Shown here: one piece after another, positions 7,519 through 37,956 of the stretch | Layout: each line of letters opens with the position of its first letter | Position numbering within the stretch: position 1 is the stretch's first letter | Source: Eledone cirrhosa | Taxonomy: Eukaryota | DNA length: 64,000 nt | Direction: 5' to 3' | NCBI GenBank assembly: GCA_964016885.1 | Contig: OZ024764.1 | Span: forward strand, 19,344,001 to 19,408,000 | Notes under the pieces: model-generated | Databases searched by the model: none | What the model saw: the letters and a program-made list of their open reading frames with translations, nothing else | Told to the model about the DNA's origin: nothing | Position numbers and translations under genes: made by a program

Positions 7519-8239
7519 TAATATAGCTTCAAATTAAAGTTAGTAAACAACAGTTTGGAGAAATCTGCAACATTTATTAAACATTCCTCAAGTTTGTCAA
7601 TTCTATAGCACAATAGTTTGTTAGTTAAAGTGTTTAGTTAGATGTTCTACATATAAAGAAGAGAGAATATTTTACCACAAATATTACAGTGGTATAATGA
7701 TTTTCCCATCTCTTCTGGAAAATATTCCTATGTTGATGTAAATATTTCTATTGTTCATAATTTTATCAAATGTGATCTTTGTCAATATCCAAATATTTTG
7801 AAAACTCCTTTGTAAATATCCAAAGTTTAATCAGAATGTAAAATCATCTTGTAAATATTCCAGAGTGAAAAAGGAATATGTTGTTATTTATCTCAATTCA
7901 GAAGAAATATTTCACCATAATTCACCACAGACTAAACAAGTTTATATCACTTGTATGTAACATCTTTCTGTTGTCTTTAAAAGACTCTTTTCTGTCAAGA
8001 TCATGTGATATTCTGAAATAGTAGAGAAACATTATTAAGATATTTAGAAAGTAGAGATACAACAGTGAAAACTTTACTACATCTCTATATTAATAGATAT
8101 AAACCTTACATGGTGACACAAACACTGCAACACTAACTTACAGGAAAACATCTAGTTACTTCAATCAGGTGAAGAGATAAACTAGATTGACTTCATTCTC
8201 TTCAGAAAACAGGATAGACAGATGGTTGGGAATATTAAC

Positions 8240-8730
8240 TCTTTTACTGGAGAAGGACGTACCACTCAACATAGACTAGATACTAGGTGTAAGATCTAGA
8301 GGGACTGACAGATACAAGACTATCTGGAGATAGAAGGGTTGGAGAGTAAAATATCTCCCTGTTAAATATAAGATCTACAGGGACTGTGAGAGTGGTACAA
8401 GACAACCTAGGGAAAAGGGTAGGGATAGTAACAGATCTCCCTGTTAAATATAAGATCTAGAGGGACTGTGAGAGAGGTACAAGACAACCTAGAGAAAAGA
8501 GTAGGGACAGTAAAAGATCTCCCTGTTAAATATAAATTCGGAGATGTTCTACATGATAAATATGATAAGGAGGAGATTGATAGCTATGACATAGAAGATA
8601 TCTGGAAGTTTCTTTCAGACAGCCTGTTGTGAACCACTGATGAGATCTGTACTTGATGAAAGCTGCCAGCCAGATGAATGTTGCCTTGGTGATGGAATAG
8701 TACAGTAGATAGAAGTTGAAATCTAAAAGA
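8240..8730 (+). repeat. Old RTE relic containing an 82-bp minisatellite (~3 units)
   Basis: Reads GEGRTTQHRL...RVGTVKDLPVKYKFGDVLHDKYDKEEIDSYDIEDIWKFLSDSLL, homologous to the RTE region that follows the APE domain. Confidence 0.75.
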
Positions 8731-9188
8731 CCTGATGAGACAGGAGGGGGAACAACAATATCAAATAGTTAAAATGGAAGCTAGATATTAGGCTTACAAT
8801 TTATTGATTTCTGTTGTTATTGTTAAAATCTGTTTAATCTGTGATATTTGAGACAATGTACAGGACAATAGAATTAATATCAATGTCAGACTAGCAACAA
8901 CAAAAGTTTTCATTTTATTGGCAGGTTTAAATTACAGAAGTTACCAACCTTTACTGAAAATACAAATATATATCTTACCTGTTAAAGAATAATAAATGAA
9001 AGTTTAATGTGAAAAACTTTAATTTACACAAAATCTTCAAACACTACTTCAAAAATGGAAACCTGGTGTTTATGATCCCTGTCATAGGTAAAACCTACAA
9101 GGTTAACCCTAGTTTTAGCCAGGATGATGGATCTACACAATTGTTGTTGTTGTTGTAGTATGCTGTAATGAGTTTGATATTGATACAG

Positions 9189-10657
<1,469 letters not shown>

Positions 10658-10944
10658 TCAATCACCTCAGTTTCTCACATAATTCACAGCTTAATACTGA
10701 GAAATTTAGTTATATTACTAAATAATTTCAAAGTGTTGAGTGTTTTTAAAATTATTTCAAAATGATGGATAGTGTCTTTCATTAGAAATGGTTAATGTTG
10801 AGGATATGTCTGATGTAACGTGCTCTTTAATGCCAATGTCCTCTGGTATTCTGAAATAATAAAAGAACATTATAAGATACTGAGAAACTTGTAATACATC
10901 AGTACAAATTTCATATAATATTTCTATATTGATAAATGGACTGT

Positions 10945-11291
10945 AATAAATACTAAGGCCATCCTTGGTGAAGAATGTGCTGACTAACATAGGTTAGTTA
11001 TTAGTGGTAGTAGATTATACTGACTGATAAAAGTAGTTATTAGTGACATTAGATTAAACTGACTGATAAAAGTAGTTATTAGTGACAGTAGATTAAACTG
11101 ACTGATAAAAGTAGTTATTAGTGACATTAGATTAAACTGACTGATAAAAGTAGTTATTAGTGACATTAGATTAAACTGACTGATAAAAGTAGTTATTAGT
11201 GACATTAGATTAAACTGACTGATAAAAGTAGTTACTAGTGACATTAGATTAAACTGACAGATAAAAGTAGTTACTAGTGACATTAGATTAA
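10945..11291 (+). repeat. 39-bp minisatellite (~7.5 units) grown from an RTE endonuclease relic
   Basis: Unit agtagttattagtgacattagattaaactgactgataaa. The flank reads NTKAILGEECAD*HRLVIS and the unit reads VVISDIRL; compare RTE EECTSQHRLIISDL. Confidence 0.85.
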
Positions 11292-11499
11292 CCCTTTAGT
11301 ATTCACATTACTCTATATTTACTATTATATTTTCACAGTAAATGCTTTATCTCACATGATATCAAATCTATGAGATTTTCATATTATTTATTTTGAGAAC
11401 AATACCTTAACATAAGTATAAGTGACCAATTATGGCCAGTTTGAACAGAAAGACATGAGACAATTCTGGCCAGATATGGCCAGTTTATATACTAAAGGG
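11292..11499. mobile_element. piggyBac-type MITE (208 bp)
   Basis: TTAA target duplication on both sides; TIRs ccctttagta / tactaaaggg. Confidence 0.85.
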
Positions 11500-14120
11500 T
11501 TAAGGAAATTAGGTGTAGAAGAATGGCTTGTGAGAAGCTGTCAGTAAAGTGTCTAGTGAGGAATTGAAGGTACAGGTAGGAGTTCATCATGGTTTAGTTC
11601 TCAGCCCACTGTTGTTCATCATAGTTCTCCAAGCCATAACAGAGAGGTTTAAGACTGGCTGTCTATGGAAACTTCTCTATGTAGATGACCAACTATAGAT
11701 ATAGAATTTGAAATGGTAAGTTCTGAGAATATACTTAGCCAAAACTAAAGTGCTAATGGATAGGAGAGAAGACCTTCAGGAAAGTGGCCCTGCTCCATAT
11801 GTAGAAAAGGAATAAGTAGAGATAACCACAATGACAGAGACCTAGTTATAATAGCAGGGGACTTCAATGGTCATGTTGGACAGCTCCAGGATGGATACAC
11901 TGGGGTACATGGTGGTTATGGTTATGGCTCAAGAAACGATGAAGGAGTGAGGCTTCTTGTATTTTGTGATGCAAGTGAACTAACCATTTGCAACACTTCA
12001 AGAAACCTACCAACCACCTAATAACCTACCAATCAGGTGAGCACATGAGACAGATTGACTTCTTGCTAGTTAGGCAGTAAGAGAGACAGATGGTGTCAAA
12101 TACTAAGGCATACCCCAGGGAACAATGTAACCCCCCAACATAGGTTAGTCGTTAGTGACATCTCAGTAAGCAAGAGACAAAATGAGACATACAAGAAGGT
12201 GTGAAAAAGGAAGGTCTGGAAACTAAAAGACCTTTCACTAAAATATAAACTTAGGCAAGCCCTTCAAAATGTGTATGAGGAAAAAGAAGACGTTTTAGCG
12301 TCGTATGACGTAGATGATAACTGGAATTTCTTACGTGACAACTTACTGCAGGTTACTCATAAAACTTGTGGCTGGAGCAGAGCTCCAACCAGACAGAGAG
12401 TGACCTGGTGGTGGAACAGCACGGTAGATAGAGCCATTAGAGCCAAAAGACTAGCATGGAATGTTTGGAAAAATTGTAGGGGTAGAGACCGATACACAGC
12501 CGCTAAGAGAGAAGCTAGATGTCACGTCTACTTAGCACGCAGGGAGGCTGAGAGTAGGAGGTTTGCCAATGTTCTGCGACGGGAAGATCAGAGGCGTGCA
12601 GTGTTCCACATTGCAAGGCAGTGTGTCAGTGCAAATCAGGATGTTGTTGGAGATAAATGTGTCCGGGATGATGCCGGTGTACTTAGTGTCACGAATGATC
12701 AGAAAAAGAAGGCCTGGAAATGTCATTATGAGAGACTGATGAATGTGGAGAATGAATAGGAGAGAAACTACCTTCAGTAGACCCGACAGAAGGACCAGCT
12801 ATTGAGATTGACGACTATAGGGTCCAAGAGGTAATTAAGGAAAGGAAAAATGGAGGTCTGCTGGACTGTTGGGGATAGTTGCTGAGATGCAAAAGGCATC
12901 AGGAGAAGTAGGAATTAAACTGGTTGCATGCATCATTAATCAGGCTATATATGGTGGTGTCATACCCAAAGATTGGTGCAGCAGTATTCTCATAAATTGA
13001 GGTAAAGGTAAAGGGGATGTTCTTGAGAGGAGTAATTATAGGGGCATAAAACTGATGGATCAGGTTATGAAAGTGACAGAAAGAATACTAGCGCAACTTA
13101 GAGAAAGGGTCAAACAGATGCCCTCTTCTTAGTGAGACAACTACAAGAGAGGTTCTTAGTGAAGAATAAACTACTATACTTAGTTTTTGTTGACCTAGAA
13201 AAGGCCTTTGATAGAGTACCCCAATCTGTCATCTGGTGGTCCCTAAGGAAACTAGGTGTAGAGGAATAGTTTGTGAGGACAATGCAAGCTATGTACAGAG
13301 GTGGTGTCAGTAAAGTGAGGGTAGGAATAGAGTTTAATAAGGAATTCCAGATACAAGTAGGAGTACATCAGGGTCGGTCCTCAGCCAGCTATTGTTCATT
13401 ATAGGCCTCCAAGCCATAAAAGAGGAGTTTAAGACTGGCTGCCCATGGGAACTTCTCTAGGCTGACGATGTGGTTCTTATAGCAGAATCAGTAGAGGAGC
13501 TAGAGCATAAATTCTGGCTATGGAAACAGCAGTTGGAAGCAAGAGGACTGAGAGTGAACCTAGCTAAGACTAAAGTGTTGAGTAGAAAAGAGGACAAAAC
13601 TCTCATTCCATCAGGGAAATGGCCTTTTTCAATATGTAGAAAAGGAACTGGCATAAATTCTATAATGTACACAATGCAGATTTTGGGTACACAAGAGATG
13701 TAGTGGGATAGCAGGCAAACTAACAGGTAGGGAAAACTACATATGCAGTAGATGTACAGAGAAATTTGACAGTAGAAGTCGCATTGATAGACACATTTTT
13801 CAAATGCAGGAAGGATCTACAGAGGTGGTTGATAGCTTCCGATACCTAGGTGATCAGAGGCCATAGTATCTAGAATAAGGACGGGTTGGAAGACGTTTAG
13901 GGAGCTGCTTGCTCTGTTGACAAAGAAGGGTTTCTCCCTAAGAACGAATGGCTTGTGATGCCTGCGTGAGATGTGTGATGCTGCACGGTAGTGAGACATG
14001 GACAGCAACTGCGGAGGATATGCAACGACTGGAGAGAAATGAAGCAAGTATGCTCCGTTGGATGTGCAATGTCAATGTGCATCAACGACCAAGCATAGAT
14101 GAGTTGAGAGAGAATGCTCA
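11500..14120 (+). mobile_element. Degenerate RTE LINE (short RT fragment followed by a long APE-RT relic)
   Basis: IIAGDFNGHVG, VTWWWNS, FVDLEKAFDRVP, GCPWELL*ADD, MLHGSETW; many stops and frameshifts. Confidence 0.9.
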
Positions 14121-14124
14121 ACAT

Positions 14125-14520
14125 GGCCATACCAGTGCATGTGTCTCCTGTGAAACACATCCTTGAGGTTGTCGATCAGCAGTTTTTTTAAGAGCTCAGT
14201 TGAGCTGACATCATCCTCAATGGTCACACTACACATCCAGTGAATCATAGCTCTGTCATTTCTTCAGAGTCAATTCAGACAGTCAGATAACATGGCCCAG
14301 GTCTCACTGGCATGAAACAACACACTTCTCCCACAGGTGTTATAAATCTGCCCCATGGTGTCTAATGGTAGCCAGCATGTCTAGGAGAAGCTGCCTAAAC
14401 TTGTTACCTGTGGAGTGGCACAGCACAATGGCAGTGAACTTGGCTCCACTTCCAGCTGACATGTCACACAGGTAGCAGAAAGATGTCACCACATCCAGCT
14501 TGTCCTCACCAACAGGCCTC
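14125..14520 (-). mobile_element. RTE LINE C-terminal relic on the opposite strand
   Basis: Minus strand reads GQIYNTCGRSVLFHASETWAML...RNDRAMIHWMCSV. Confidence 0.7.
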
Positions 14521-14659
14521 TAGTTATAAAGGTTATCATTGACCAACACTGACACCCCTCAGGGTAGACTGAACCAACACTTACACCCCCCAGGGTGGAC
14601 TGAACCAACATTTACCACAGGTCTATAAATAACTGTATTACCCTATCATGATACTATAA

Positions 14660-15074
14660 CATTATAAACCTAAAACTCTGTGATTGTGTCTTGTCTGTAA
14701 TGTAATACAGCTAAAACGGGGCATAATGGGAAAATAGTTTGAAAGGAAGTTGACCCTGACATGGGAATACAAATGGGATAAAATAAGTTTCACGTAAATC
14801 AGAGCACAGGTCCCCAGGATATGGGTTTTTTCTGGTACCTTTATAAATAGAGAGAGAAAGATAATGGGTGTGTGTGAGAGAGATAGCTGGTGGTGCTGTT
14901 GAACAAAGTTATAAAATTAGAACAAGTGACTTGTGTGTGTCTGTGACAGACATTCATATATATATATATATACTACTAATTTCATTTTACATTATATACA
15001 TGTCTGTGTATATTTTAATTATTTAAAAATTATTTTTAAAGGGAACGTGATCCAACAGGTCACAGGTGTTCTAG
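14660..15074 (+). mobile_element. Non-autonomous Helitron (same family as 7171-7518, opposite orientation)
   Basis: Reverse-complement homology to 7171-7518; hairpin gtgatc-caaca-ggtcac followed by CTAG|T. The 5' end is eroded. Confidence 0.75.
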
Positions 15075-15162
15075 TAAGATTATAAATATAAACACACAAA
15101 AGATAGAATCTACTCAAACCTTAATATCTCAGACCCCAGTAGATTACTGGAACTTTAATTTA

Positions 15163-15277
15163 TCCACTCCGTTAGAATGAAAGACAAAGTTAACTTTGGT
15201 GGGATTTGAACTCATAACATAAAGGGTTGAAATCCCGCCGAGGTTAGCTTTGCCCTTCATCTTTACGGGGTTGATTT
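15163..15277. repeat. Imperfect inverted repeat of two SINE-like arms (copies near 21365, 30995 and 63798)
   Basis: gaatgaaagacaaagttaactttggtgggatttgaac pairs with gttgaaatcccgccgaggttagctttgcccttcatc across a ~15-nt spacer. Confidence 0.65.
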
Positions 15278-15550
15278 AAGATCTTATAATAGTTTCTGAT
15301 TAAGACACAAGGTCGACAATGTTTGGGGGGAATAAGTTGATTAAATCAAACACAGTTACTGTGAGATCACTTCTTTGATAGTTTGTTTAAAAATAACTGA
15401 TTCACAATTTACGTATGAAAAGTTGACAAAGATTTACAGGTGGTGTTATCAATAAATAGGGTCTTCAAAGTAGCAGGAAACGACTAGATTTATAGATAAA
15501 GAAGTGGGAGACAGGATTATCAGAGTTAAGAAGAGCTACACACTTCTCCA

Positions 15551-15831: not shown

Positions 15832-16020
15832 CCGTAAGGGTACCCTGGTTATCTCAGCACCTTAGCCTCACCTTACTGAGGTGTCAGGTGATACCCGTGA
15901 GGGTTCCTGGTTATTTAAGCACCTTAGCCACACCTTACCGAGGTGTCAGGTGATACCCGTGAGGGTACCTGGTTATTTCAACACCTTAGTAATGCTGCCA
16001 GTGTGTTGGCTTGCCTCAAA
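15832..16020 (+). repeat. 62-bp minisatellite (~2.5 units) derived from the CRE endonuclease C-terminus
   Basis: Unit ccgtgagggtacctggttatttcagcaccttagcctcaccttactgaggtgtcaggtgatac reads LTEVSGDTREGTWLFQHLSL and ends in NAASVLACLK. Confidence 0.85.
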
Positions 16021-16521
16021 GTGTGTAGTTAACCCCTAAGGTGTGAGGTGTGGCCTATTATCACACTTGGTGGTCAATTGCCATCTCCCACTGTGTTTTT
16101 CTTTCCTTTATCATTATTGTTCAATAAATTATATTATTATACACAGTTTAGACAATATATTTTTAATGTCTTTCTCAAGGAATTGCCAGCAATTTATAAT
16201 GTTATTTACACACTTATGTTATTTATGTATATATTGAAAACATATTTACAACGTTATTCTACTGTAAATTTATACAATTGTAATAAAATATATTAATTAT
16301 ATCATCACATAATATAAAAACGACCTTTAGAATATTTAAATATTTAGTTTTGTTAATTTATTTTTCAGCAACAACAAAAGTTTTCACTTTAATTAATTAG
16401 AGGTAGGTAAAATATAGATAATTACGATAACATTTTATATTTCCAGTAATGAAACAAACAAGAAAATATATATTTGTGATGTGAAAAGTGAGCTTAAATC
16501 TAGAATATTAATAGACATAAT

Positions 16522-16665
16522 ACTTACATTATAGTCTCAGGTGTTTAGTATTTACAGAAATGTTTTCTAAATGATATTGTAGGAAGACTAACACGTGGAC
16601 AGGAAGTCGACAACTGCACCACTGCGCATGATTCAATGTCAAAGGTCAAGTTTTTGTGTGACGTA
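16522..16665 (-). promoter_or_regulatory. Putative promoter plus non-coding exon 1 (copy 2) of the 9189-10850 zinc-finger gene
   Basis: CACGTG 16592-16597, CAGGAAGT 16600-16607, TGCGCATG 16623-16630, TGACGT 16659-16664; donor GTAAGT at 16527-16522. Confidence 0.6.
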
Positions 16666-16708
16666 AATATTTTTACCGAATTAAATTATGTGAAGTTTGT
16701 AATAAAAA

Positions 16709-16956
16709 CGTGGGTATGGTGTGGCGTGCGGTGGCCGGAAGCGGGGGATTGCCCGACCGGAAGGGTGCTTGGCCGGAAGGATGTTCGACCGGAAGGGCCA
16801 GCAGATGGCCCTTTCTAGTGGTGACCAGCAACGGTGTAGACGCGAGTTTTGGCATCTCCCGGTGTTAAGGAGTTGGACGCACGTGGGAGAGGAGAGACCA
16901 GCAGTGGAAGTTAGCGGCGCCTATGAAAAGCGGTGAGATAGCTTTTTCTAACCACA
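16709..16956 (+). repeat. Gypsy 5' LTR
   Basis: (c)gtggg...ccaca; direct repeat of 20569-20818. Confidence 0.9.
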
Positions 16957-17076
16957 AGCTATTTCGGCACTGGAAACTGAGATCTGATTGAAAAAAAATA
17001 AATAAATAAAGCTACTGGAAAAACAGAGAGGAGTCTGTTGTTTTTTTTTATCACGTACCGCAAGACAAATTAGAAG

Positions 17077-20000
17077 ATGGCGTCAAGACTACGAACAAGC
17101 GAAGCTATCAGGGCATTTACCGGGGTAGGTGTTGTCGCTTGGCTGCGAAAAGTCCGGCTGGTCGCAAGCTTGCAGAAGATAGAAGATGTGGCTGGCCTCA
17201 TGGCACTGTACCTCGAGGGGGACGCGTTGGTACTCTTCCTTGAGTTGGACGAACACAGCGAAAGAGATGCGCAAAAGATTGAGAGGCGCATGATGGAAGC
17301 GTTCGCAGAGGCACCGTTAGCCGCTTTCGCTAAGCTGGCAAGAATTAGATGGAACGGTGAACACGTTGATATTTTCGCAGCGGAAATACGGTGATTGGCC
17401 ATGTTGGCTGGATATCAGGTGGAATGCGAATGCACGGTGCGGTTGGCGTTCTTAAATGGATTTCCAGACGACATAGCGGTGAAACTGCAGCAAGTCCCGG
17501 GTTACAAAGAAATGGAAATGCATTCACTGGTGGAACAAGCCCGGATTATAGCAGAAGATGCCAAGAAGAGTGTTGCAGCGATAGCAACTACAGAGGCTCA
17601 AGACAGCTGGCAGCTAAATGGTGAAAGGGAGGCAACCGCGGCACGCGGCCGCCCGCGAACGTTTAGAGGTCGCTGTTTTTGGTGCCAGGGACCGCACATG
17701 GCTAGAGACTGCAGAGAGTCAAGGCTGGAAATAATATGCTACCGGTATTAACTGCGACCAGGGAAACAATCCAAGGGGAACTACTGCGCCGGTAGTTTCC
17801 CCTTACGAGTAGAGGCGCTGCCCGTGGTGGAAGTCTTCGTGAGGGGAAAGCCACAGCGAGCACTCGTGGACACGGGCTGTTTGACGACACTGATGGCGCA
17901 GGGGTGGAGAGGGAAGAGCAGTGTAAGGGCAGTCGACGGCAGGAAAATTGAATGCCGAGGTCACAGCGAGATGGAAATAGCGGTACGGGGAAGGAAAGTA
18001 AGGTGGATGGGATTGGCGTGGTTATGGGCATGGACGCAATTGGCCGTCTAGGAGGCGTCACAGTGAACAACGTCGGTGTGCCGTTTAGCGCCGCTACATC
18101 GGTATGCGCTGTGAGTGCGCGACAGGAGAACCAGAAGGCCCACGAGGAGAAATACCCCGCTTACACTGTGCAGGACAAAGACTTCAAGGCCGTGTTCGAT
18201 GGGCAGCGATGGGTTGTTGAGTGGTACTGGAAGGGAGAACCACCAACACTGAAGACCAAAGTGGGCTGCTATCAACACACATTGAAAGGAAACTATTAGG
18301 AGCGAGTTCGAGCGAGAGGTAGAGAGATGGATTGAGGAGGGCATACTGCTTCCCTGGAAAGAGGAGGTGAAGTGCAGAGTATTGCCGTTAATGGCGGTGG
18401 CGCAACCCACGAAGAACAAGGTGAGGCCGGTGCTGGACTTTCGGGAGCTGAACGAGCACCTGTCATGCCACACGGGTGGCGAGGTCACGGATGTCTGTGG
18501 GGAAACCCTGCGTGAGTGGAGACGCATGACAGGGGGTTCAGCAATCGTAGATCTAAAGTCGGCTTACTTGCAATTGCATATAGATGAGAAGCTCTGGCAG
18601 TATCAGCTGGTCAGGTATAAGGGCCGGACATATTGCCTGACCAAGCTCGGATTCGGGCTGAGCTCCGCACCGAAGATCATGGCGGCGGTCCTCAAGACCA
18701 TTCTGGGAAAGGCCGACAAGATGAAGTGGGCCACTAACTCCTATATTGACGACATCCTAGTGGACGAGTCTGTGGTGGCGGCGGCGGAGGTCACGAGCCA
18801 TTTACAGGGGTATGGACTGGCTGCGAAGCCGTCAGAAGCGTTGGAGGGAGGAGCCGCGCTGGGACTTAGGCTACGGCGAGACAGGACGGGCGTCTTGGTA
18901 TTCCAGAGGGGAAATGAAGTTCCAGAACTGGACCCAAGTATGAGTAGGCGGGAGCTTTTCTCGGTGTGTGGAAAGTTGGTGGGTCACTACCCGATTGCTG
19001 GGTGGCTCCGGACGGCATGCAGCTATGTCAAGAGACGAGCGGGAGGGGTGACTTGGAGTGACAGAGCGGGAGAGAGGATGGTGGCCATGATGCAGGAGAT
19101 CGTGGGGAGGGTGAAGGCCGACGACCCAGTGCGGCGACGCTGGTATGTTCCCAAATCACAGAGCGGGACCGTATGGTGCGATGCCAGCAGCATAGCGCTG
19201 GGTGTCACGTTGGAGATAGGAGGTGTTGAGGTCGAGAATGCATCAATGTGGCCGAACTGGACGCAGTGTTGAGAGGGGTGAACCTCGCCCTGAGGTGGGG
19301 ACTGCGCACCATCGAGAAATGCACCGACTCGGCTACTGTACTCGGATGGGTGAGATCAGTGCTCACCAGTGAGAAGAGAGGCGCAGCGGAGATGCTGATA
19401 AAGCGCCGCCTGGGAACTTTAGGAGAGCTGGCCACCGAGTTCGTTCTGAGGCTGAGCGTAGTTTTCGTGCCCTCAGAGAAAAATAGGGCGGACATCTTAA
19501 CTAGGGTGAAGAAAGCCTGGATGGAAGCGCCGGAGGAGGTAGAAGATGAGATAGCTGCCGTGTGTCGGCTGACCGAGTCGGATCTGAAAGGGTTGCATGA
19601 CATGCACCACATGGGAGTGGATAGGAGCCTGTTCCTAGCCAGGAGAATCGACTCGGACGTTAACAGTCTCAGTGTTCAAAGGGTGGTTAGAGGCTGCGTC
19701 CGATGCCAGTCCATTGATTCCGCCCCGGGTGTACACGAAACGGGAAGCCTCCCAGTGGATCGCGACTGGAAGCGATTGGCGGTGGATGTAACGCACTACC
19801 GACAGGGAACATACCTCTCGCTGGTCGACTGTGGACCAGGACGGAAGGCGATATGGAGGGAGATGAAGACTGGAACGGCCGAGGAAATCATGCGGGCGTT
19901 GAGAGGTGTTCTTGGAGCGGGGCCCTGTGGACGAACTGCTGATGGACAACGGCGCAGCGTTCCACTCGGAGGCACTGAGGGAGATGCTCGACGGATGGAA

Positions 20001-20547
20001 GGTGGACGTTTCTTCAGAGCGGCGCACAGGCCGAGCGGGAATGGAATCGTGGAGCGACACCACCGGACGATCAAGGCAATAGCGGAGCGGGGCCATATCT
20101 CACCAATGGAGGCAGTGTTCTGGTACAATGTCCCCTCGGGTTGGACAGGTCGAGGAATCGGTGCCACATAGAGCAGTATTCAAATACGAGTGGCGGCACC
20201 CGTGCACGCCACCACAACGGCCAGTGGGGAGAGAGAGTGCATTCGTGCAGGTAGGCGAAGAAGTCTGGGTTAAGCCCCCAGATGCACGTTGCACATCTCA
20301 ATGGGGAAGGGGAACAGTGACGGCCGTAAATTCAAAGAAAAATGTGTCCGTGGACGGGGTGCCACGTCATGTCCTGGACGTAAGAAGAATCACTGTGTCG
20401 ACGGACTCCGAGGAAGAGGAAACCCAAGATGAGGTGGGAACCCAGAGCTCTGCCCCAATACTACGAAGATCTCAACGAAGTCGTAGACCACCGACCTGGA
20501 CAGCAGACTTTCATATGCAGAGGGACGAGGGGGAAATTGATCCTTGA
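17077..20547 (+). pseudogene. Gypsy gag-pol polyprotein broken by stops and frameshifts
   Basis: Consecutive ORF fragments 17077-17394, 17395-17751, 17824-18051, 17952-18299, 18367-19272, 19248-20171 and 20128-20547. Confidence 0.88.
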
Positions 20548-20568
20548 GATCAGGGGGGGGGGGGGGCG

Positions 20569-20818
20569 TGTGGGTATGGTGTGGCGTGCGGTGGCCTGAG
20601 GCGGGGGAATGCTCGACCGGAAGGTGTTTGGCTGGAAGGATGCTCGACCGGAAGGGCCAGCAGAGGGCCTCTCTCTAGTGGTGACCAGCAAACGGTGTGG
20701 ACGCGAGTTTTGGGCAGCTCCCGGTGTTAAGCAGATGGACGCACGTGGAAGAGAAGTAACCTGCAGTGGAATTTAGCGGCGCCTGTGAAAAGCGGTGAGA
20801 TAGCTTTTTCTAACCACA
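20569..20818 (+). repeat. Gypsy 3' LTR
   Basis: TGTGG...CCACA termini, preceded by a polypurine tract. Confidence 0.9.
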
Positions 20819-21275: not shown

Positions 21276-21753
21276 TAAGATTATAAATACAAACACACAA
21301 AAAGATAGAATCAACTCAAACGTTTAATATCTCAGACCTCAGTAGATTACTGGAACTTTAATTTATCCACCCCGTTAGAATGAAAGACAAAGTTAACTTT
21401 GGTGGGATTTGAACTCATAACATAAAGGGTTGAAATCCCGCCGAGGTTAGCTTTGCCCTTCATCTTTACGGGGTTGATTTAAGATCTAATAATAGTTTCT
21501 GATTTAGACACAAGGTCGACAATGTTTGGGGGGAATAAGTTGATTAAATCAAACACAGTTACTGTGAGATCACTTCTTTGATAGTTTGTTTAAAAATAAC
21601 TGATTCACAATTTACGTATGAAAAGTACACAAAGATTTACAAGTGGTGTTATCAATAAATAGGGTCTTCAAAGTAGCAGGAAACGACTAGATTTGTAGTT
21701 AAAGAAGTGGGAGACAGGATTATCAGAGTTTAGAAGAGCTACACACTTCTCCA

Positions 21754-21956
21754 GTTGGCTGGGAAATAATTATCTTTCCTTATTATTTTTCTCGACCTCT
21801 TAGATGTTTGGAACCGACTTTTCTTCCTGAAAACGGAAACCCTTACCCTAATACTGGGGAATAAAACGTCTATTGCAAGTATCTAAGGGGTCCAGGGAAA
21901 ATATTGAAAAGGGGTCTAGAAAAAAATCTAAGAAAAATAATTATTTCCCACCCAAC
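21754..21956. mobile_element. Foldback MITE copy
   Basis: Paralog of 15551-15754. Confidence 0.7.
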
Positions 21957-22030
21957 GTAAGGTGTGAGTAGATCTGTGAAACATCTCTTTGTATACTTTC
22001 ACCCTACTTTTTCTACAAATCTAGTCGTTT

Positions 22031-22417
22031 CCGTGAGGGTACCTGGTTATTTAAGCACCTTAGCTTCACCTTACTGAGGTGTTAGGTGATACCCGTGAGG
22101 GTACCTGGTTATTTAAGCACCTTAGCCTCATGATACTGAGGTGTCAGGTGATACCCGTGAGGGTACCTGGTTATTGCAGATCCCTAGCCTCACCTTACCG
22201 AGGTGTTAGGTGATACCCGTGAGGGTACCTGGTTATTTAAGCACCTTAGCCTCATGATACTGAGGTGTCAGGTGATACCCGTGAGGGTACCTGGTTATTT
22301 CAGCACCTTAGCCTCACCTTACTGAGGTGTCAGGTGATACCCGTGAGGGTACCTGGTTATTTCAGCACCTTAGCCTCACCATCTGGTATTGCTGCCAGTG
22401 TGTTGGCTTGCCTCAAA
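22031..22417 (+). repeat. 62-bp CRE-derived minisatellite (~5.7 units)
   Basis: ccgtgaggg recurs at 22031, 22093, 22155, 22217, 22279 and 22341. Confidence 0.9.
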
Positions 22418-22494
22418 GTGTGTAGTTAACCCCTAAGGTGTGAGGTAAAATATAGATAATTACCATAACATTTTATATATCCAATAATGAAACA

Positions 22495-23195
22495 CCATAT
22501 CAATTGCTCCAATGCAGTTTATCATCTCGCCAAACTTGTTGGCACCAACTCTCTGTCGCCAAAGACTGCAATATAAGATTGAAATAAAGCAGCTCTGGTA
22601 CCATGTTGGCTCTCGTCGATCTAGACAATGATGGACTCACCATTGTCATCGAAGCCTCCAAGTTGTTGGCGATTTTCCTCCAAATATTGCTCGCAAATGT
22701 CTCGAGTAAAATTGCACCAGTCAATAATTGTCGGTTGGGAGACTCCCGTTTCTCGAATCATCTCAGCTTGTGTATAATTGTAGCACCACGTGTATAAAAT
22801 AAAAATAAGGTGGTCGAGTGGCACATGGCTTCCATGAAAAAAACAATTATGTCGCACTGCTTGGGAGACATTGTCGGGGTTACATCGCCATCTCCATTTC
22901 TTGTGAGTCTCAGAATAATGGTTTAATGTGCAGGTTTCATTACAAACAGGACAATTGACACTGTCACTGCCGTCTTACCAGCCACTCTAACATAGATTGT
23001 CACCGTGTATGACAGGTATAAGAGTAACAAGTGTAATATTCTCATTAACGATGTCATTTACATCCAAAACATCAACTAACGTAGTGCCAGCCCGTAGTCG
23101 TCCAACCAGTTTTTGTATTCAGATAAACAATAGTTTTTAATGAATCGAAAATGAAAATAAATTTCATTTCTGACGTGAGACTTAAGGTTGAGCGA
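22495..23195 (-). mobile_element. Merlin/ISXO2-like transposase relic, internally deleted
   Basis: CPVC...WRWRC Zn ribbon, then HNCFFHGSHVPL...TIIDWCNFTRDICEQYL...LGG...IV*IDES. Absent from the paralogous modules (empty site aatgaaacaaacaagaaaa). Confidence 0.8.
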
Positions 23196-23256
23196 AGAAA
23201 ATATATATTTGTGATGTGAAAAGTGAGCTTAAATCTACAATATTAATAGACATAAT

Positions 23257-23390
23257 ACTTACATTATAGTTTCAGGTGTTTAGTATTTACAGAAATGTTT
23301 TCTAAATGTTGTTGTAGGAAGACTAACACGTGGACAGGAAGTCGACAACTGCACCACTGCGCATGCTTCAATGTTTTTTTGTGACGTAAA
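23257..23390 (-). promoter_or_regulatory. Putative promoter plus exon 1 (copy 3, orphan)
   Basis: CACGTG 23327-23332, TGCGCATGC 23358-23366, TGACGT 23382-23387; donor at 23262-23257. Confidence 0.6.
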
Positions 23391-23739
23391 AATATTTTTA
23401 CCGAATTAAATTACGTAAAGTTTGTAATAATAAAATGAAGTTGAAAACAGTAAATGTAATTAAAATAGAGAAAGTAAGGTGTTGGTGGTGAGGAATGGAC
23501 GGTAGACGTTTTACCTCAGTCTAGGTAGTGTATTTTACCTGTGTCACTCGGACAATAGCCAGCGATGACCACTACACCAACCACTCTCTCCTTCAGATGG
23601 TGTCCACTTTCGTGAGTCTGTAGAATAACAGGGCAGTTGGAAGACAGAGGACAGCAGAAGAGGTCTTGACTTGAAAAGAGTATCACTTGATACCTCTATA
23701 TAACCTGTTGGTAGAAATAGTAGGGTGCTGGATCAATCG

Positions 23740-24150
23740 AGTACCCTGGCAGAGATCACCGGGTATCTCGGGTCATATGGAGGCTAAGTTGCCAGAACAG
23801 CTAAGTACCCTGACAGAGATCACCGTGTATCTCGGTAAGATCGGGTCATATGGAGGCTAAGCTACCAGAACAGCTAAGTACCATCACAAGAGTCATCGGG
23901 TATCTCGGTAAGATCTTGTTATAAGGAAGCTAAGCTACCAGAACAGCTAAGTACACTGACAGAGATCACCGGGTATCTCGGTAAAATCATGTCATGTGGA
24001 GGCTAAACCGCCAGAACAGCTAAGTACACTGACAGAGATCACCGGGTATCTCAGTAAAATCTTGTCATATCGAGGCTAAACCACCCAAACAGCTAAGTAC
24101 CCTCACAAGAGTCATCGGGTACTTCGGTAAAGCCAGCTGCCAACGGTGAC
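23740..24150 (-). repeat. 73-bp CRE-derived minisatellite (~5.5 units)
   Basis: aacagctaagta recurs every 73 bp (units at 23795, 23868, 23941, 24014, 24087). Confidence 0.85.
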
Positions 24151-24419
24151 CACAACTTCATTGTCAGCAGCCCAGCTTCTCAAACATCACAGACTGGAAT
24201 AAATACTTTGCCGATAATTACTGGTAGTTTAGCTTTTATTTCGTTCGTCTACGGAAGCAGTGACCCTCACTTTTACTACAGCATGTAGGATGTGGGAGGG
24301 AGACAAAAACATCACTAACTGGGGTCTCACAAATGTGACAGTTAGTTTTGAAAATACATATACAAGATACAAGATAAATGACTAGACTGAAATATATTTG
24401 ATAGGGAATAAAGAGTAGA

Positions 24420-24594
24420 ATATTCTAGTCTGTGGTGTTGGAGAAGTTTGGAGGAGATAGGTCCCTGACAACGAGGTTCTTGTTATCGTTGGCAGCTCTC
24501 CTTACTGAGGTGTCAGGTGATACATATGAGGGTGTTTGGTAGTTCCAACATCTTAGCCTTGCTATCACTCGAGGTGAGACTGTCTCAGAAAGTA
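24420..24594 (+). mobile_element. CRE 3' relic (paralog of 3370-3546), ending at the inversion breakpoint
   Basis: Near-identical to 3370-3545. Confidence 0.8.
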
Positions 24595-24673
24595 TACATC
24601 CATATATTGCGAGGAGAAAAATATTAAAACTGTGAATTATGTGAGAAACTGAGGTGATTGATATCTTTTATGA

Positions 24674-25726
<1,053 letters not shown>

Positions 25727-25775
25727 TAGTAAATCATTCAGTCAGGGTAATACCTTAACTACCCACAAACGTTAA

Positions 25776-26747: not shown

Positions 26748-29700
26748 TTATCATCATCATCATCATCATCAACGTTTAACGTCCGTGTTCCACGCTTGCA
26801 TGGGTTTGGACGGGGGTATTCCCACTTGAGGCAAGAGTGATTGTCTTGCTCGCATAGGACTGTCTGGCGGGTTTTCTACAGTTGGATGCCCTTCCTAACA
26901 CCAACCACATTTACAGTATGGAACTGGGAGGTTTTTACCGTGTTACCTACACGGCCACATTACAGCGTGGACTGTGTGTTTTTTTGTCGTGACACCTACA
27001 CGATCTCATTTGTTTCGGCCTGGATGGTGTGGCACCAACATAACTTTACATAGGAGGGGGTGGTGTGGATGGGGTGGGGGGGACGGGGGGTGTATTTTGT
27101 TAGAGATGCCTACTGGCTGTAGTAGGTTTTACTATGTATTTAGGCAAGGCGGGTCTTCTCTATTACTGAGTACCGCCAAAGGTCTCGGTCCAGTGACATT
27201 GTCTTGGAGAGGTGTAAGTGTGTGAGGTCGGAGTTTATCAGCTCGTCCCAGGATTTTCTAGGTCTGCCTATTCCGTGGCTACCGTCTATCTTTATTGCCC
27301 TGCACTTTGTTATACAGCTATCGACTTTCATGCGCATCACGTGTCCATACCAACGTAGCCTTCTCTCGAGTAAACAACATCTGATCCCTCTTATTTCTAA
27401 TTTTTTCCTTAGTTCGTTTATGCTTTGCCGTTCACGTATATTACTATTACACATCCAGCGGAGCATGCAAGCTTCATTCCTCTCTAGTCTGCGTATATCC
27501 TCTGCACACAATGCCCAGGTCTCACTGCCATGCAACATTGCTGTTCGTATGCAGGCATCATACAACCTGCCTTTCATTTTTAGGGAGAACCCTTTAGCGG
27601 CTAATAGTGGTATAAGCTCTCTGAACTTTTTCCATCCAGTTCTGACTCTAGCTACTGTACTTTCAGAGCACCCTCCCCCACTGCTGATTTTGTCACCCAG
27701 GTAACGGAAGCTGTCCACTATTTCTATAGAGCCCTCTGCGCAGTTGTAAGAGCTAGTATTTTGTGGGCACTCGCTGCTACTTATTGCACCAGAGCACCGC
27801 CCACATGTAAAATCTATGTTCTTAGTTAGCTTACCTGTGATCCCACTACATCTTTTATGCACCCATACTTTGCATTTGGGACATAAAATGGAGTTTCTAC
27901 CTACGCCTTTCCTACACACTGAGCATGGCCATTTCCCGGAAGGGACCGCCGCCTTATTTTCTTTCCTACAAACTAGAACTTTAGTCTTAGCCAGGTTAAT
28001 TTTAAGGCCTTTTGATTCTAGGCCGTGCTTCCATGTTTGGAATTTCTTCTCTAGCTCGGCCATTGATTCAGCTATGAGTGTCAGGTCGTCTGCGTATAGG
28101 AGTTCCCATGGGCAGCCGGTCTTGAACTCCTCTGTTATAGCCTGAAGGGCAATAATAAATAGTAGGGGGCTGAGAACAGAGCCCCGATGGACGCCAACTT
28201 TTACGCTAAACTCTTCACTATATTCGTTAATTCTAACCGTGCTGGCTGTTTCTTTATACGTAGCTTGTATAGCTCTCACAAGCCATTCGTCGACACCTAG
28301 TTTTCTAAGGGCCCACCAGATAATGGAACGGGGGACTCTGTCGAAGGCTTTCTCCAAGTCGACAAAAGCTAAGTAGAGGGGTTTACCTTTAGCTAGGTAC
28401 TTCTCCTGTAGTTGACGTACAATGAAAAGAGCGTCTGTGGTACTTTTGCCTGACACAAACCCGAACTGCATTTCATCTAGGTCAATTCTCTCTCTGATTA
28501 GTTGCGCTATTACTTTTTCCGTGACCTTCATGACCTGGTCGATTAATTTAATGCCTCTATAGTTACTCCTATCTAGGGCATCTCCTTTACCCTTATAACA
28601 GTTAACGATGATGCTGCTATGCCAGTCCTTCGGAACAACCCCATTCTGTACGACTTGGTTAACTATCCGGGTGACCATGGTGTGTCCCACCGTGCCAGAT
28701 GCCTTCAGCATCTCAGCAGCTATTTCCGAAGGCCCAGCCGCCTTACCCGTCTTCATATCCTTGATTGCCTTACATATTATACTACCCTCGACTAACACTG
28801 CTGGTCCCTCTATTGGGTCAATATGGGGGAGACTGTCTTTCTCCCATTTATTCTCCTCATTTAGTAGCCTTTCATAGTGACACTTCCAAGCTACCTTCTT
28901 ATCAGCGTCGGTGATGGCAAGTACGCCGTCATCATTAAGTACACACTTCTCCCCGACAATATCACGGTTTTCCTTGACACATTGCCTAGCAATCCTGAAC
29001 ACCTCACGTTTTTGGTCCTCGCGTTGTAGAACATGCTTGAACTTTCTTTCCTCTGCTTCCCTTCTTGCAAAGTACACTTGTCTCCTAGCTTCCCTCCTGG
29101 CCACTTGATAGTCTTCTCTACTTCCCCCATCCCGCCATACTTTCCAAGCCTTTTTTTTGGCCTTAATTGACCCCTCCACCTTACTGTTCCACCACCATGT
29201 TACTCTCCTCCTGCCAACAGGCCTGCTCCAGCCACAGACTTCGTCTGTCGCCATCAGCAGGTTTGCTTTCAGAAATTCCCACTGTCCCTCTATATTGTCC
29301 AACTCTAAATGCTCTTCCTTACTGTCGAAAGCATCAAGTAATATGCTTTGAAATTTATTTCTGGCTGTGGGGTCCTTTAGCTTCCATATTTTTCTCCTGA
29401 GGATAGTCCTCTTCTGCTGTCGAGTACGTCTCGTCCTGACTATGAGGTCGCTAATTATCAGTCTATGTTGGGAGGTGCATTCTTCATGCACAGGGGGAGG
29501 GATTTAGTGTTTACAACAGACACTCTGTCACGTCTTCTGGTAAGGATATAATCTACCTGGCTTGTGTGTTCCCTGGATCTATAGGTGATCAGGTGATTGT
29601 CACGTTTTTTGAAGTTAGTGTTACAGATAGTTAGGTTATTTGAGTCACAGAATTCCAGGATTCTGGAGCCTTCCTCATTTCTGGTACCAAACCCATAGCC

Positions 29701-30300
29701 TCCATGGACTTCGTCGTAGCCATCACAATGTTGTCCAACGTGACCATTTAGGTCGCCTGCAATAATTATATAGTCACTGTCGGTTATTTGGGAGGTAGTG
29801 AGCATCAGTGTCTCATAGAATCTGTCTTTTATAGTGCCGGGCAGACCGGATTGGGGTGCGTACGCAGATATTACTGTCACTGTAGTTCTATTGAGGACAA
29901 GTCTTATTTTAATTATTCTGTCGTTCACTCTATTTACGTCTATTATCTTATCTGCCCACTTTTCTGCTACCATGATTCCTACTCCACCCAGCCCATCGTC
30001 GTCGTTTCCCACCCACAAAAGCTTATAGCATCGTTCTTTACCCACGATGAATCTAGCAGACCCACCCCTCCACCTGGTCTCTTGAATACAACAAACATCG
30101 ACCTCCTTACGTTCAAGCATTTCTACAACCTCGTTAGCGCGACCCTTTAAGGTGCCTACATTTATGGTACCAACTCTGAATTTTGGATTGCGTTTGGAGG
30201 GTGGGGGCAGTGGGGGGCGGGGGGAGATGGGGTTATGTTAGCCGTCCGTGGTCGAAACAAAGAGGAGTGCTCGCATTCTCGTCCACGAGGTGAATTTGTC
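26748..30300 (-). mobile_element. Near full-length RTE-clade LINE (APE endonuclease plus RT) with one frameshift near 29490
   Basis: GTINVGTL, CCIQETRW, SAYAPQ, AGDLNGHVG, VDYIL. The 783-aa ORF has FVDLEKAFD, LLYADD and RWYGHVMR. It has a 3' UTR and a (GAT)n tail at 26748-26770. Confidence 0.95.
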
Positions 30301-31586: not shown

Positions 31587-31663
31587 GTGAGGTGTGAGTA
31601 GATCTGTGAAACTACATCTCTTCGTATACTTTCACCCTACTTTTTCTACAAATCTAGTTGTTT

Positions 31664-31790
31664 CCGTGAGGGTACCTGGTTATTTCAGCCCCTTAGCCTC
31701 ACCTTACCGAGGTGTCAGGTGATACCCGTGAGGGTACCTGGTTATTTCAACACCTTAGTAATGCTGCCAGTGTGTTGGCTTGCCTCAAAG
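31664..31790 (+). repeat. 62-bp CRE-derived repeat (~1.5 units)
   Basis: Same unit as 22031-22417. Confidence 0.8.
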
Positions 31791-32286
31791 TGTGTAGTTA
31801 ACCCCTAAGGTGTGAGGTGTGGCCTATTATCACACCTAGTGGTGAATTGCCATCTCCCACTGTGTTTTTCTTTCCTTTATCATTATTGTTCAATAAATTA
31901 TATTATTATACACAGTTTAGACAATATATTTGTAATGTCTTTCTCAAGGAATTGCCAGCAATTTATAATGTTATTTACACACGTTATTTATGTATATATT
32001 TAAAACATATTTACAACGTTATTCTACTGTAAATTTATATAATTGTAATAAAATATATTAATTATATCATCACATAATATAAAAACGACCTTTAGAATAT
32101 TTAAATATTTAGTTTTGTTAATTTTTTTTTCAGCAACAACAAAAGTTTTCACTTTAATTAATTAGAGGTAGGTAAAATATAGATAATTACGATAACATTT
32201 TATATTTCCAGTAATGAAACAAACAAGAAAATATATATTTGTGATGTGAAAAGTGAGCTTAAATCTACAATATTAATAGACATAAT

Positions 32287-32420
32287 ACTTACATTATAGT
32301 CTCAGGTGTTTAGTATTTACAGAAATGTTTTCTAAATGATGTTGTAGGAAGACTAACACGTGGACAGGAAGTCGACAACTGCACCACTGCGCATGCTTCA
32401 ATGTTTTTTTGTGACGTAAA
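32287..32420 (-). promoter_or_regulatory. Putative promoter plus exon 1 (copy 4)
   Basis: CACGTG 32357-32362, TGCGCATGC 32388-32396, TGACGT 32412-32417; donor at 32292-32287. Confidence 0.6.
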
Positions 32421-32498
32421 ATATTTTTACGGAATTAAATGATGTAAAGTTTCTAATAATAAAAATGAAAGTTGAAATCAGTAAATGTAATTAAAATA

Positions 32499-32850
32499 GA
32501 ACAGCTAAGTACTCTTACAGAGATCACCGGGTACTTCGGTAAGATCGGGTCATATGGGGGCTAAGTTGCCAGAACAACTAAGTACCCTGACAGAGATCAC
32601 CGGGTATCTCGGTAAGATCGGGGTCATATGGAGGCTAAGCTACCAGAACAGCTAAGTACCTTGACTGAGATCACCGGGTATCTCGGTAAAATCATGTCAT
32701 GTGGAGGCTAAACCGCCAGAACAGCTAAGTACACTGACAGAGATCACCGGGTATCTCAGTAAAATCATGTCATGTGGAGGCTAAACCACCCAAACAGCTA
32801 AGTACACTCACAAGAGTCATCGGGTACTTCGGTAAAGCCAGCTGCCAACA
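32499..32850 (-). repeat. 73-bp CRE-derived minisatellite (~4.5 units)
   Basis: Same unit as 23740-24150. Confidence 0.85.
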
Positions 32851-33124
32851 GTGACAACAACATCGTTGTCAGCAGCCCAGCTTCTCAAACATCACAGACT
32901 GGAATAAATACTTTGCCGATAATTACTGGTAGTTTAGCTTTTATTTCGTTCGTCTACGGAAGCAGTGACCCTCACTTTTACTACAGCATGTAGGATGTGG
33001 GAGGGAGACAAAAACATCACTAACTGGGGTCTCACAAATGTGACAGTTAGTTTTGAAAATACATATACAAGATACAAGATAAATGACTAGACTGAAATAT
33101 ATTTGATAGGGAATAAAGAGTAGA

Positions 33125-33300
33125 ATATTCTAGTCTGTGGTGTTGGAGAAGTTTGGAGGAGATAGGTCCCTGACAACGAGGTTCTTGTTATCGTTGGCAG
33201 CTCTCCTTACTGAGGTGTCAGGTGATACATATGAGGGTGTTTGGTAGTTCCAACATCTTAGCCTTGCTATCACTCGAGGTAAGACTGTCTCAGAAAGTAT
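33125..33300 (+). mobile_element. CRE 3' relic (paralog of 3370-3546)
   Basis: Near-identical sequence. Confidence 0.8.
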
Positions 33301-33611
33301 TAGAGGGAGACTCCTGCACCCCATGTGATGTGAGACTGATTGACAGAGTGTTGACTTAATATTTTAATTTGTTGTGATTCTATGTGAAATATATCTCTAT
33401 GTAAGTAACTTGGTTACGTGAATCATTGTGAATCTCGTAAATACTTAAACAGAAATCTACTTAGGACACAAAATAAAGCAGGTTCCATTGAACAAAGTAT
33501 TTAAAGGACGTATATCAAAAAGAAGGGTGGATGTAACGAGAGTTGTCTCCCCTTACATATGTAATACAGTAGCGTATGTTTGTGTGTTTCTCTCTCTATA
33601 TATATTTTTTA

Positions 33612-34249: not shown

Positions 34250-34520
34250 AGGTCTCTTCACACCGGTCACCATTGAGACCTCAGAAGTACTTGGACCCCG
34301 TACTGCCAAGCTCCTCTGTAAGATCAGAACGTTGGTGGCCCTTCTGAAGAGGGAGCCCCATGAGGTTGGGGTGGCTGTTGCAGTGGGTGTCACTGTCCAT
34401 CGTCCGGGGCGAATACTTTTGCAGTCTTATCCACAGGGCGCAGCACTTCTGCCCCTTGACCTAGACCCAAAGCTCAATTATTTGCTTGTTGCTGTGAGGA
34501 CTTTCGTATTTAGTTCTTTT
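34250..34520 (+). mobile_element. 3' relic of a second, divergent CRE-like family
   Basis: FTPVTIETSEVLGPRTAKLLCKI...KREPHE, a frameshift, then GWLLQWVSLSIVRG. This is the same RLE C-terminal pattern as the CRE at 46380-46913. Confidence 0.7.
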
Positions 34521-37494: not shown

Positions 37495-37956
37495 CTGCCC
37501 ACACTGCAAAGTGGTTGGGTAGGAGATATGACAAAAAGCACCCAACCCACACTGTAGAGAACATACAGTCAACATTATAAGGTGGTCATGTAGGCGATAT
37601 GACAAAAAGAAACTAGCCTACACTGTAAAGAACACACAGCCAACACTATAAGCTGGTCATGTAGGTGATATAACAAAAAGAAACCAGCCCACACTGTAAA
37701 GCGGTTACGTAGGTGTCACGGCAAAAAGGACCCAGCCCAAACTGTAAAGTGGTCATGTAGGTGTCACGACAAAAAGCACCCAGTACTTAATGTAAATAAG
37801 CTTGGTTCTAGGAAGGTCATCCAGCTGTAGAAACCAAACCAAAATTTGTTCTGTAGGAGCAACACGTGGTCACCTGACCTGGCATTGCTTACAACAGGAT
37901 AACTCGTCTAACCCATGCCAGGGTGGAAAAAATGATGTAAAACAGTGATGATGATA
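37495..37956 (+). repeat. RTE 3'-UTR relic with ~48-bp repeats (paralog of 6200-6770)
   Basis: Same repeat unit, tail and downstream flank. Confidence 0.75.

Follow-up and report, generated by a model that had tools for sequence, protein, structure and literature searches.

Minisatellites from the reading-frame end of a LINE, probably born by slippage, around predicted zinc-finger promoters of Eledone cirrhosa

A tandem repeat of 70–90 bp reportedly lies near C2H2 zinc-finger genes of Octopus bimaculoides (Albertin et al. 2015), and we know of no transposon origin described for it. In humans, 23% of minisatellites are transposon-derived (PMC3389668), and a direct-repeat model of minisatellite birth has been described (PMC3389668 and PMC6947457). 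Here we describe two minisatellites, with units of 62 and 73 bp, on either side of a predicted zinc-finger promoter in a 64,000-nucleotide stretch of Eledone cirrhosa DNA (contig OZ024764.1, positions 19,344,001–19,408,000; hereafter the window, in whose coordinates all positions are given). Both arrays and a single-copy relic, lying within 2.6 kb, come from the C-terminal coding end (the last 150–300 coding bases) of one type of long interspersed nuclear element (LINE). We consider it likely that the arrays are minisatellites born by slippage from this reading-frame end and carried along by module duplication, with no selected regulatory role.

The window is filled by a minus-strand tandem cluster of C2H2 zinc-finger genes, organized in modules that we letter A to F. 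In the direction of the genes, a module consists of the relic, the 73-bp array, the predicted promoter and first exon, intron 1 (with the 62-bp array and a 39-bp array), a long zinc-finger exon, an 82-bp array, and a 48-bp array. The pieces reported here belong to module C. The 62-bp minisatellite occupies 22031–22380 on the plus strand, in the predicted intron 1 and antisense to the gene. It holds 5.6 copies, a 33-bp partial unit and five full units, which agree with one another at 52–60 of 62 bases and read LTEV[S/L]GDTREGTWLF[Q/K]HLSL on the plus strand. Units 1–2 and 3–4 form a 124-bp higher-order pair, by which the array grew in part. It is continued on the plus strand by single-copy sequence (22381–22446) containing the end of an old LINE open reading frame (ORF; ..AASVLACLKVCS*) and the start of its 3′ untranslated region (UTR). 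The last unit together with this tail aligned with 46594–46486 of a younger LINE in the window (80 matches, 24 mismatches, and 6 gaps), a score reached by none of 500 shuffles, and a profile of 120 homologous proteins matched both the 62-bp unit with its tail and the relic. The UTR-like stretch that follows the array is longer in modules B and D, where it matches the UTR of the young LINE at 16223–16273 and 31988–32041. On the other side, the left edge of the array adjoins an inverted repeat (21679–22032; 126-bp arms, 73% alike), at which the upstream LINE sequence is gone.

The 73-bp minisatellite lies on the minus strand at 23703–24131, upstream of the predicted promoter, and consists of units of 73, 73, 73, 73, and 64 bp and a diverged last unit, which extends the array to 23703 from the Tandem Repeats Finder call of 23768–24131. 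The protein profile gave no match to the 73-bp units, and the five single units matched the young LINE weakly (scores reached by 83, 3, 38, 0, and 0 of 1000 shuffles). The LINE origin of this array is recognized because it is continuous with 190 bp of upstream LINE sequence: single-copy LINE sequence follows it without interruption on the minus strand (24132–24330), and 24319–24063 aligned with the LINE over 256 bp at 64% identity (163 matches, 91 mismatches, and 13 gaps; 0 of 1000 shuffles). This single-copy stretch is the left arm of an imperfect inverted repeat of ~550 bp, whose right arm, head to head with the 73-bp fragment, is the relic on the plus strand (24333–24587, with a clear match at 24411–24587). 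The relic aligned with 46666–46509 of the young LINE (118 matches, 39 mismatches, and 4 gaps; 0 of 500 shuffles), and the protein profile matched 24411–24587 at E 1e-5.

A first-pass annotation of this DNA, in which the inverted repeat had been missed, placed three pieces of the same LINE end here, with the 62-bp array and the relic on the plus strand and the 73-bp array on the minus strand. Both the origin and the opposite orientation were borne out, by alignments above shuffles for the 62-bp unit with its tail and for the relic, and by continuity for the 73-bp array, whose single units aligned weakly in the comparison with the young LINE that the annotation had proposed. The peptide it gave for the relic was exact. 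That given for the 73-bp array turned out to be a composite, although the array is LINE-derived as claimed; the nearest single unit of module C reads LTEIHGDLCQGT*LFWQLSL. Its view that the two arrays were amplified separately agrees with their different unit boundaries and with a unit tree in which the 73-bp units form a single branch apart from the 62-bp units and the relic; units of the two kinds are alike at ~60–72% of aligned bases. The unit numbers vary among the modules, as it had also noted, from 1.5 to 5.6 for the 62-bp array (2.5 in B, 5.6 in C, 1.5 in D, and 1.5 in E) and from ~3 to 6 for the 73-bp array (~3, 6, 4.6, and 3 in four modules, two of which are copies in a 48-kb duplication). 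The first two 73-bp units of modules C and D share 73 of 73 (C1 = D1) and 69 of 73 bases. Units at the same position are thus alike or identical across modules, indicating that the arrays are older than the module duplications.

The younger LINE (46142–50157, minus strand, 4,016 bp) lies in intron 1 of module E/F and carries stops and frameshifts, a PHD finger, a reverse transcriptase (RT), and an endonuclease region. The RT matched RVT_1 with an E value of 0.0008, which falls below Pfam's cut-off, and the translation contains a KRPD..WDVTV motif, which is PD-(D/E)xK-like, and a degraded CCHC. An RT followed by a CCHC and a PD-(D/E)xK-like endonuclease, without long terminal repeats (LTRs), places the element among the R2-group non-LTR elements with a restriction-like endonuclease (RLE). 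Its protein has 508 homologues, the best of them 60% identical, and a PDB search gave no match. The label CRE is provisional and based on motifs, the homologues carrying no clade names. Comparison of the filled site with the empty sites in modules B and D revealed no target-site duplication and a loss of 0–3 bp, so the element is filed as CRE-like only. It resembles the R2 group and the CRE clade in the order of RT and PD-(D/E)xK-like region (PMC4640811, PMC3636483, and PMC10294476) and differs from known CRE elements, which make a target-site duplication (PMC3636483); molluscan CRE types were found almost only in cephalopods (PMC10294476). The old fragments are 64–76% identical to the young LINE, which is thus a relative and not their direct parent. 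The insertion point of the young LINE lies in the 3′ UTR stretch of an older fragment of this LINE type that runs in the opposite direction. The young LINE stands in gene sense with an AATAAA near its end and might shorten the zinc-finger transcript. A much more distant fragment of the endonuclease end, with no array, was found at 34254–34367 (E 0.038; 42–45% DNA identity to the others).

LINE copies are mostly 5′-truncated, and their 3′ ends are thus the commonest remnant. The same segment was found repeatedly because all three pieces are LINE 3′ ends, which truncated copies keep. In the account that we favor, slippage in decayed, 5′-truncated LINE copies beside the predicted zinc-finger promoter would start the arrays, the 62-bp array and the 64-bp unit at direct repeats of 6 and 8 bp. 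In the young LINE, such repeats are present at 46594/46533 (6 bp) and 46583/46520 (8 bp), with spacings of 61 and 63 that become 62 and 64 when a 1-bp deletion in the young copy is counted. Exact homology of at least 6 bp occurs at 0.27%, and of at least 8 bp at 0.035%, of the 239,486 possible junctions in the element, and the 8-bp pair is the top-scoring near-repeat in the last 330 coding bases. The repeats of 5–10 bp at the unit boundary described by the direct-repeat (Haber–Louis) model are therefore present for the 62- and 64-bp periods, as measured in the young element, and both arrays consist of head-to-tail units (62 or 73 bp) homologous to or continuous with a transposon, as do transposon-derived minisatellites. 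We also considered whether the flanking near-repeat is exceptional in itself and rejected this, since 196 of 300 shuffles reach its score and it is not among the 12 best of the element. The 73-bp junction would have arisen once in a family member, be present now in several variants, and likely be older than this promoter, to judge from the contigs described below. A single old fold-back or head-to-head event may have produced the 73-bp fragment and the relic as its arms, with about equal chances for and against. Unequal exchange would then change the unit number while the whole module is duplicated.

Contigs were compared with module D as the reference at 80% likeness; in all six runs used, the kind of DNA is at best guessed, and at this likeness repeats can create joints. 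In run X1, 83 and 106 contigs carried variants at two positions in the 62-bp unit, and 35 contigs ran past the unit into undecayed LINE tail. The summed depth over the unit was 65,166 versus 2,308–2,433 in module-only bins, a summed contig depth not being a copy number. So many distinct contigs suggest that the parent LINE family is dispersed. Three contig variants (X1/X3, one sample), at a depth of 10–32 versus 2,287–2,647 for module contigs, have a tandem junction at the place of the 73-bp junction of the modules. Their sequence is similar to that of the 62-bp unit or the relic, six bases stand between tail and unit start, and two of the three give a period of exactly 73 (40+33 and 39+34 letters). 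Because recurrence at one base is unlikely without microhomology, we infer a single origin of the 73-bp junction and its later spread.

Several further results from contigs concern the modules as a whole. Over 31600–33400 (runs X1, X3, X5, and X7), the depth of module contigs of organism A was 2,138–2,647 versus 5–17 for the divergent family contigs listed, and the corresponding depths in organism B were 4–7 and 2–5, which hints at a very large amplification of the module in organism A. The summed depth over the first exon was 6,298 versus 394 and 2,739 in neighboring bins, and 5,932–9,250 versus ~2,400 in a second comparison; it could reflect more promoter copies or overlapping contigs and was not used as evidence. 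A contig joint from 31715 to 31668 was considered as a separate array and rejected, a small deletion variant explaining it. A loose contig end in run X5 suggests that the 5′ junction of the young LINE is the same in organism B.

A number of points weigh against a neutral birth by slippage. Only 6% of transposon-derived tandem repeats are accounted for by the direct-repeat and incomplete-unit models (PMC3389668). The direct repeats used here were taken from the young element in place of the true parent, and no exact repeat of at least 5 bp was found at the 73-bp spacing and place in the element. The deduction of a single origin for the 73-bp junction draws on 15 of the 76 joints and 12 of the 90 between-letter rows, and the other 73-bp junctions could lie in older zinc-finger modules. 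The arrangement is common to contigs of organisms B and D at 95–99% identity (contigs of organism B span the 62-bp array, the first exon, and the relic, and one contig of organism D spans the arm junction and the relic); this speaks for its presence in close relatives and not for selection. The surroundings of one promoter hold, within ~3 kb, three old fragments of this LINE type as well as a young insertion, and the rest of the ~15-kb module has only the one weak further match at 34254–34367 (E 0.038). The neutral account leaves this clustering unexplained, and insertion preference or retention could explain it. A neutral origin may also be compatible with later co-option.

The inverted repeat formed by the 73-bp arm and the relic is predicted to fold as RNA. 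For 24050–24600, the predicted plus-strand fold has −197 kcal/mol (z −8.9; 0 of 100 shuffles) and 129 long-range pairs, and the minus-strand fold has −153.9 (z −3.0). The strand asymmetry was rejected as a sign of selection, the plus strand being the more stable in 32 of 43 windows across the sequence. The arm and the relic may share their starting codon in the LINE, on either side of a small palindrome (24314–24346), a possible fold-back core with 8 inverted bp and a further 5 bp, which is equalled at 162 of 21,267 window positions. The arm shares 31 states with the relic, as compared to 42 and 41 shared with the young element, and the inner 90 bp of arm and relic fail to align (151 of 1000 shuffles). 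A recent fold-back with closely related arms is hence unsupported, since the resemblance between the arms does not exceed that of either to the young element. C>T and G>A predominate among the differences from the young element (44 of 100 in the 73-bp arm and 37 of 89 in the relic).

The predicted promoter with its non-coding first exon lies between the arrays on the minus strand (23262–23390). It contains motifs that we take to be ATF/CREB-like (23382), NRF1-like (23358), ETS-like (23334), and an E-box (23327), with a GTAAGT donor at 23262. All four motif classes occur inside 80 bp in four of the five modules, and three classes in module B; at least three classes came together in none of 1000 simulated regions, the motifs having been picked after reading the sequence. 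The donor is at the same place in all five modules, and a matching acceptor precedes each of the four exon copies. The promoter is therefore likely to be real as judged from its sequence, and its position between the arrays, as proposed in the first-pass annotation, is plausible; the promoter of module C, however, is cut off from its own zinc-finger exon, since intron 1 ends at an LTR element (20818) and no acceptor lies closer than that of gene B, at 12.4 kb. Among the five predicted promoters, only those of B and F have a sense zinc-finger exon in the window; that of A runs off the edge, that of C is orphaned, and that of D is antisense. The distance to the donor is 534, 538, 882, and 4562 bp for the 62-bp arrays and 205, 441, and 455 bp for the 73-bp arrays, of which module B has none, and the 73-bp array of module D comes within ~100 bp of the promoter motifs.

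An inversion with deletion has disrupted gene D: its 5′ UTR faces the minus strand down to 25775, its coding block is flipped, and ~8 kb downstream are gone. The inverted coding block (24598–25772, plus strand) has no splice acceptor of its own and is antisense to promoter D, which would yield a 1.2-kb antisense zinc-finger RNA. We considered the block as an exon of the module C promoter and rejected it as such. Its identity to gene E is 88%, and the two share 250 exact 21-mers and one exact run of 92 bases. In gene E, the 5′ UTR (42640–43461) is predicted to measure ~930 nt with 16 upstream ATGs, and ~600 bp of the equivalent are lost in gene B. The ORF at 41447 encodes fingers only, its predicted first exon being non-coding, and no KRAB or other accessory domain was found for its protein among the best 25 of 34 Pfam families. 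Helix position 6 in its 13 fingers is T in seven, S in two, V in two, K in one, and L in one, with no Arg.

The other arrays of the modules serve as internal controls. The 48-bp array (6204–6534 and 37519–37783) matches the 3′ UTR of an RTE LINE at 26 of 30 bases (0 of 1000 shuffles), a nearly full RTE-type copy lying at ~26750–30237 on the minus strand, and it is 3.8–5.2 kb from any donor. Copy numbers of the 39-bp array, which lies 5.2–5.9 kb from the donor in the two cases measured, are 7.6, 29.6, and 19.6, and those of the 82-bp array are 3.0 and 6.8. Because these arrays are also present and variable, length-variable transposon-derived arrays are a general trait of the modules.

The first-pass annotation had proposed a tunable feedback or decoy role, in which transposon-recognising fingers or small RNAs would regulate their own genes. 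In the protein form of this idea, proteins of the zinc-finger cluster would bind the multimerised LINE units at their own promoters, with the unit number tuning repression. In modules A/F, C, and D, the arrays do stand beside a predicted promoter rich in motifs, and the parent LINE family looks abundant in organism A. Precedents exist as well: transposon consensus sequences are enriched for the motifs predicted for octopus zinc fingers, knockdown of zebrafish FZNF raises FZNF expression, and feedback of FZNF is proposed in zebrafish (PMC10547256). Loss of ZNF91, which binds the VNTR (variable number tandem repeat) region of SVAs, raises KZNF clusters (PMC8015857); these points too count against a purely neutral reading. 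We nevertheless regard feedback or decoy action through cluster proteins as highly improbable. The 62- and 73-bp units are only ~60–72% alike, the promoter distances vary widely with module B lacking the 73-bp array, the 41447 protein has no accessory domain among those best 25 families, and only promoters B and F lead to a sense exon. Motif prediction from the recognition code would be weak with no Arg at helix position 6, and just 11 of 236 motif predictions for KZNFs agreed with experiment (PMC10547256). The proposed role is unsupported here, given that 3′-end bias and short direct repeats at the unit boundaries explain the coincidence neutrally, that similar and more variable arrays stand far from the promoter in the same modules, and that the 73-bp junction occurs in other family variants.

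Feedback through RNA, in which a hairpin made by divergent or read-through transcription of the 73-bp arm and relic and the antisense RNA of promoter D would give small RNAs that silence the LINE family and the zinc-finger paralogues, is very unlikely in our judgment. The long hairpin is predicted on both strands (plus z −8.9), the inverted block shares 250 exact 21-mers with gene E at 88% identity, and coleoids edit repeat-derived RNA (PMC9068888). However, the longest unbroken helix is 19 bp with G-U pairs included, the extra 73-bp units contribute nothing to the hairpin, and any two inverted LINE remnants would fold, plus-strand stability being general (32 of 43 windows). Differences of the G-U type outnumber those of the A-C type, but the excess does not reach significance in modules C (22:13, p 0.18) or D (22:14, p 0.24); in A it is marginal (24:11, p 0.04), with copies that are not independent. 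Distinctly unlikely, too, is a co-opted sensor, in which the 73-bp repeat would be the octopus C2H2-linked repeat, the promoter would sit amid remnants of an abundant LINE family, and LINE-aimed silencing via hairpin and antisense RNA would set the output of the zinc-finger cluster without KRAB. A neutral birth that altered promoter output as a side effect, through spacing, methylation, or heterochromatin spreading from a silenced LINE family and without recognition by cluster proteins, strikes us as unlikely; the 73-bp array of module D lies within ~100 bp of promoter motifs and minisatellite expansion is known to change expression (PMC3389668), whereas the unit numbers here are small (1.5–6). 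A birth by slippage with no selected role is accordingly the reading that we retain as probable.

The remaining features concern the architecture of the modules. A 48.2-kb duplication repeats 1–15364 at 48441–64000 with ~99% identity and is either a recent duplication or a second haplotype; the two copies, which hold modules A/F and the genes at 9.2–10.7 and 57.4–58.8 kb, are not independent, and their 39-bp arrays differ, with 7.6 and 19.6 copies. Module A (2354–3546; donor 2421) contains the predicted promoter, a 30-bp unit stub, ~3 units of 64/73 bp, and the relic, and module F (50547–51739; donor 50614) is its copy. In module B (15832–16708; donor 16527), the 62-bp array of 2.5 units is followed by the predicted promoter, and an LTR element replaces the side of the 73-bp array. 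Module D (31664–33300; donor 32292) has 1.5 units of 62 bp, the predicted promoter, 4.6 units of 73 bp right beside it, and the relic. The 62-bp array of module E (45951–46052, plus strand, 1.5 units) is now 4.6 kb from the donor because the young LINE inserted between them. The LTR element (16710–20818), with RT, DUF7047, and RNase H-like domains in broken frames, connects intron 1 of module C with the sequence upstream of promoter B; the absence of a target duplication around an element that joins the two modules suggests a deletion between two insertions. Within the window, a 700-bp insertion with a broken ORF (22494–23195, minus strand) is found only in module C, and its contig joint is present in runs X1, X2, and X5; the ORF may resemble Merlin-type DNA transposases. 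A stretch of ~260 bp between the promoter and the 73-bp array (23470–23700) is present in modules A, C, and F and missing in D, and the 30-bp unit stub of A/F stands at its promoter side, which suggests that the stretch split the array or that module D lost it by exchange between units. An identity comparison among modules, made as a selection test, gave 1–3 mismatches per 196 in the relic and 1–4 per ~130 in the promoter core. The zinc-finger homologue search returned matches in mixed taxa at 37–62% identity.

Among known systems, the octopus repeat mentioned above resembles the 73- and 82-bp arrays, which fall in its size range and flank C2H2 genes. No restatement of that repeat was found in passages of PMC9068888, PMC6279123, PMC7656900, PMC13218726, and PMC12988792, and no description of this LINE-derived repeat in the main texts of the literature searched, which included few subscription papers. 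The LINE segment may nonetheless be where the tandem repeat reported near octopus C2H2 genes comes from. The feedback idea, if true, would provide a first concrete locus for asking whether zinc-finger expansions of invertebrates are tied to transposon control, and the near-identical modules differing in unit number are a ready-made test set for it. Its closest model is the SVA VNTR/ZNF91 system (PMC8015857), in which a tandem repeat carried by a transposon likewise lies close to a cluster of C2H2 genes. In that system, binding and effects on expression were shown and the repressor carries KRAB, whereas here the units are decayed remnants, and a repressor domain such as KRAB, expected of a KZNF/transposon system, was absent from the best 25 of 34 Pfam families for the 41447 protein. 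The arrays also resemble transposon-derived minisatellites such as the Alu-, L1-, and LTR-derived VNTRs, in which a unit of 10–100 bp from a transposon remnant has an incomplete end unit, short direct repeats at the unit boundary (here for the 62- and 64-bp periods), and later changes in unit number, and of which multi-locus families exist. The locus provides a clear natural example of such a birth, in which one LINE segment gave periods of 62, 64, and 73 bp with the single-copy state and a related full-length element present in the same window. It differs from the described cases in its derivation from the endonuclease-coding end of an R2-group LINE, in the two periods that flank one promoter, and in its spread by duplication of a gene module.

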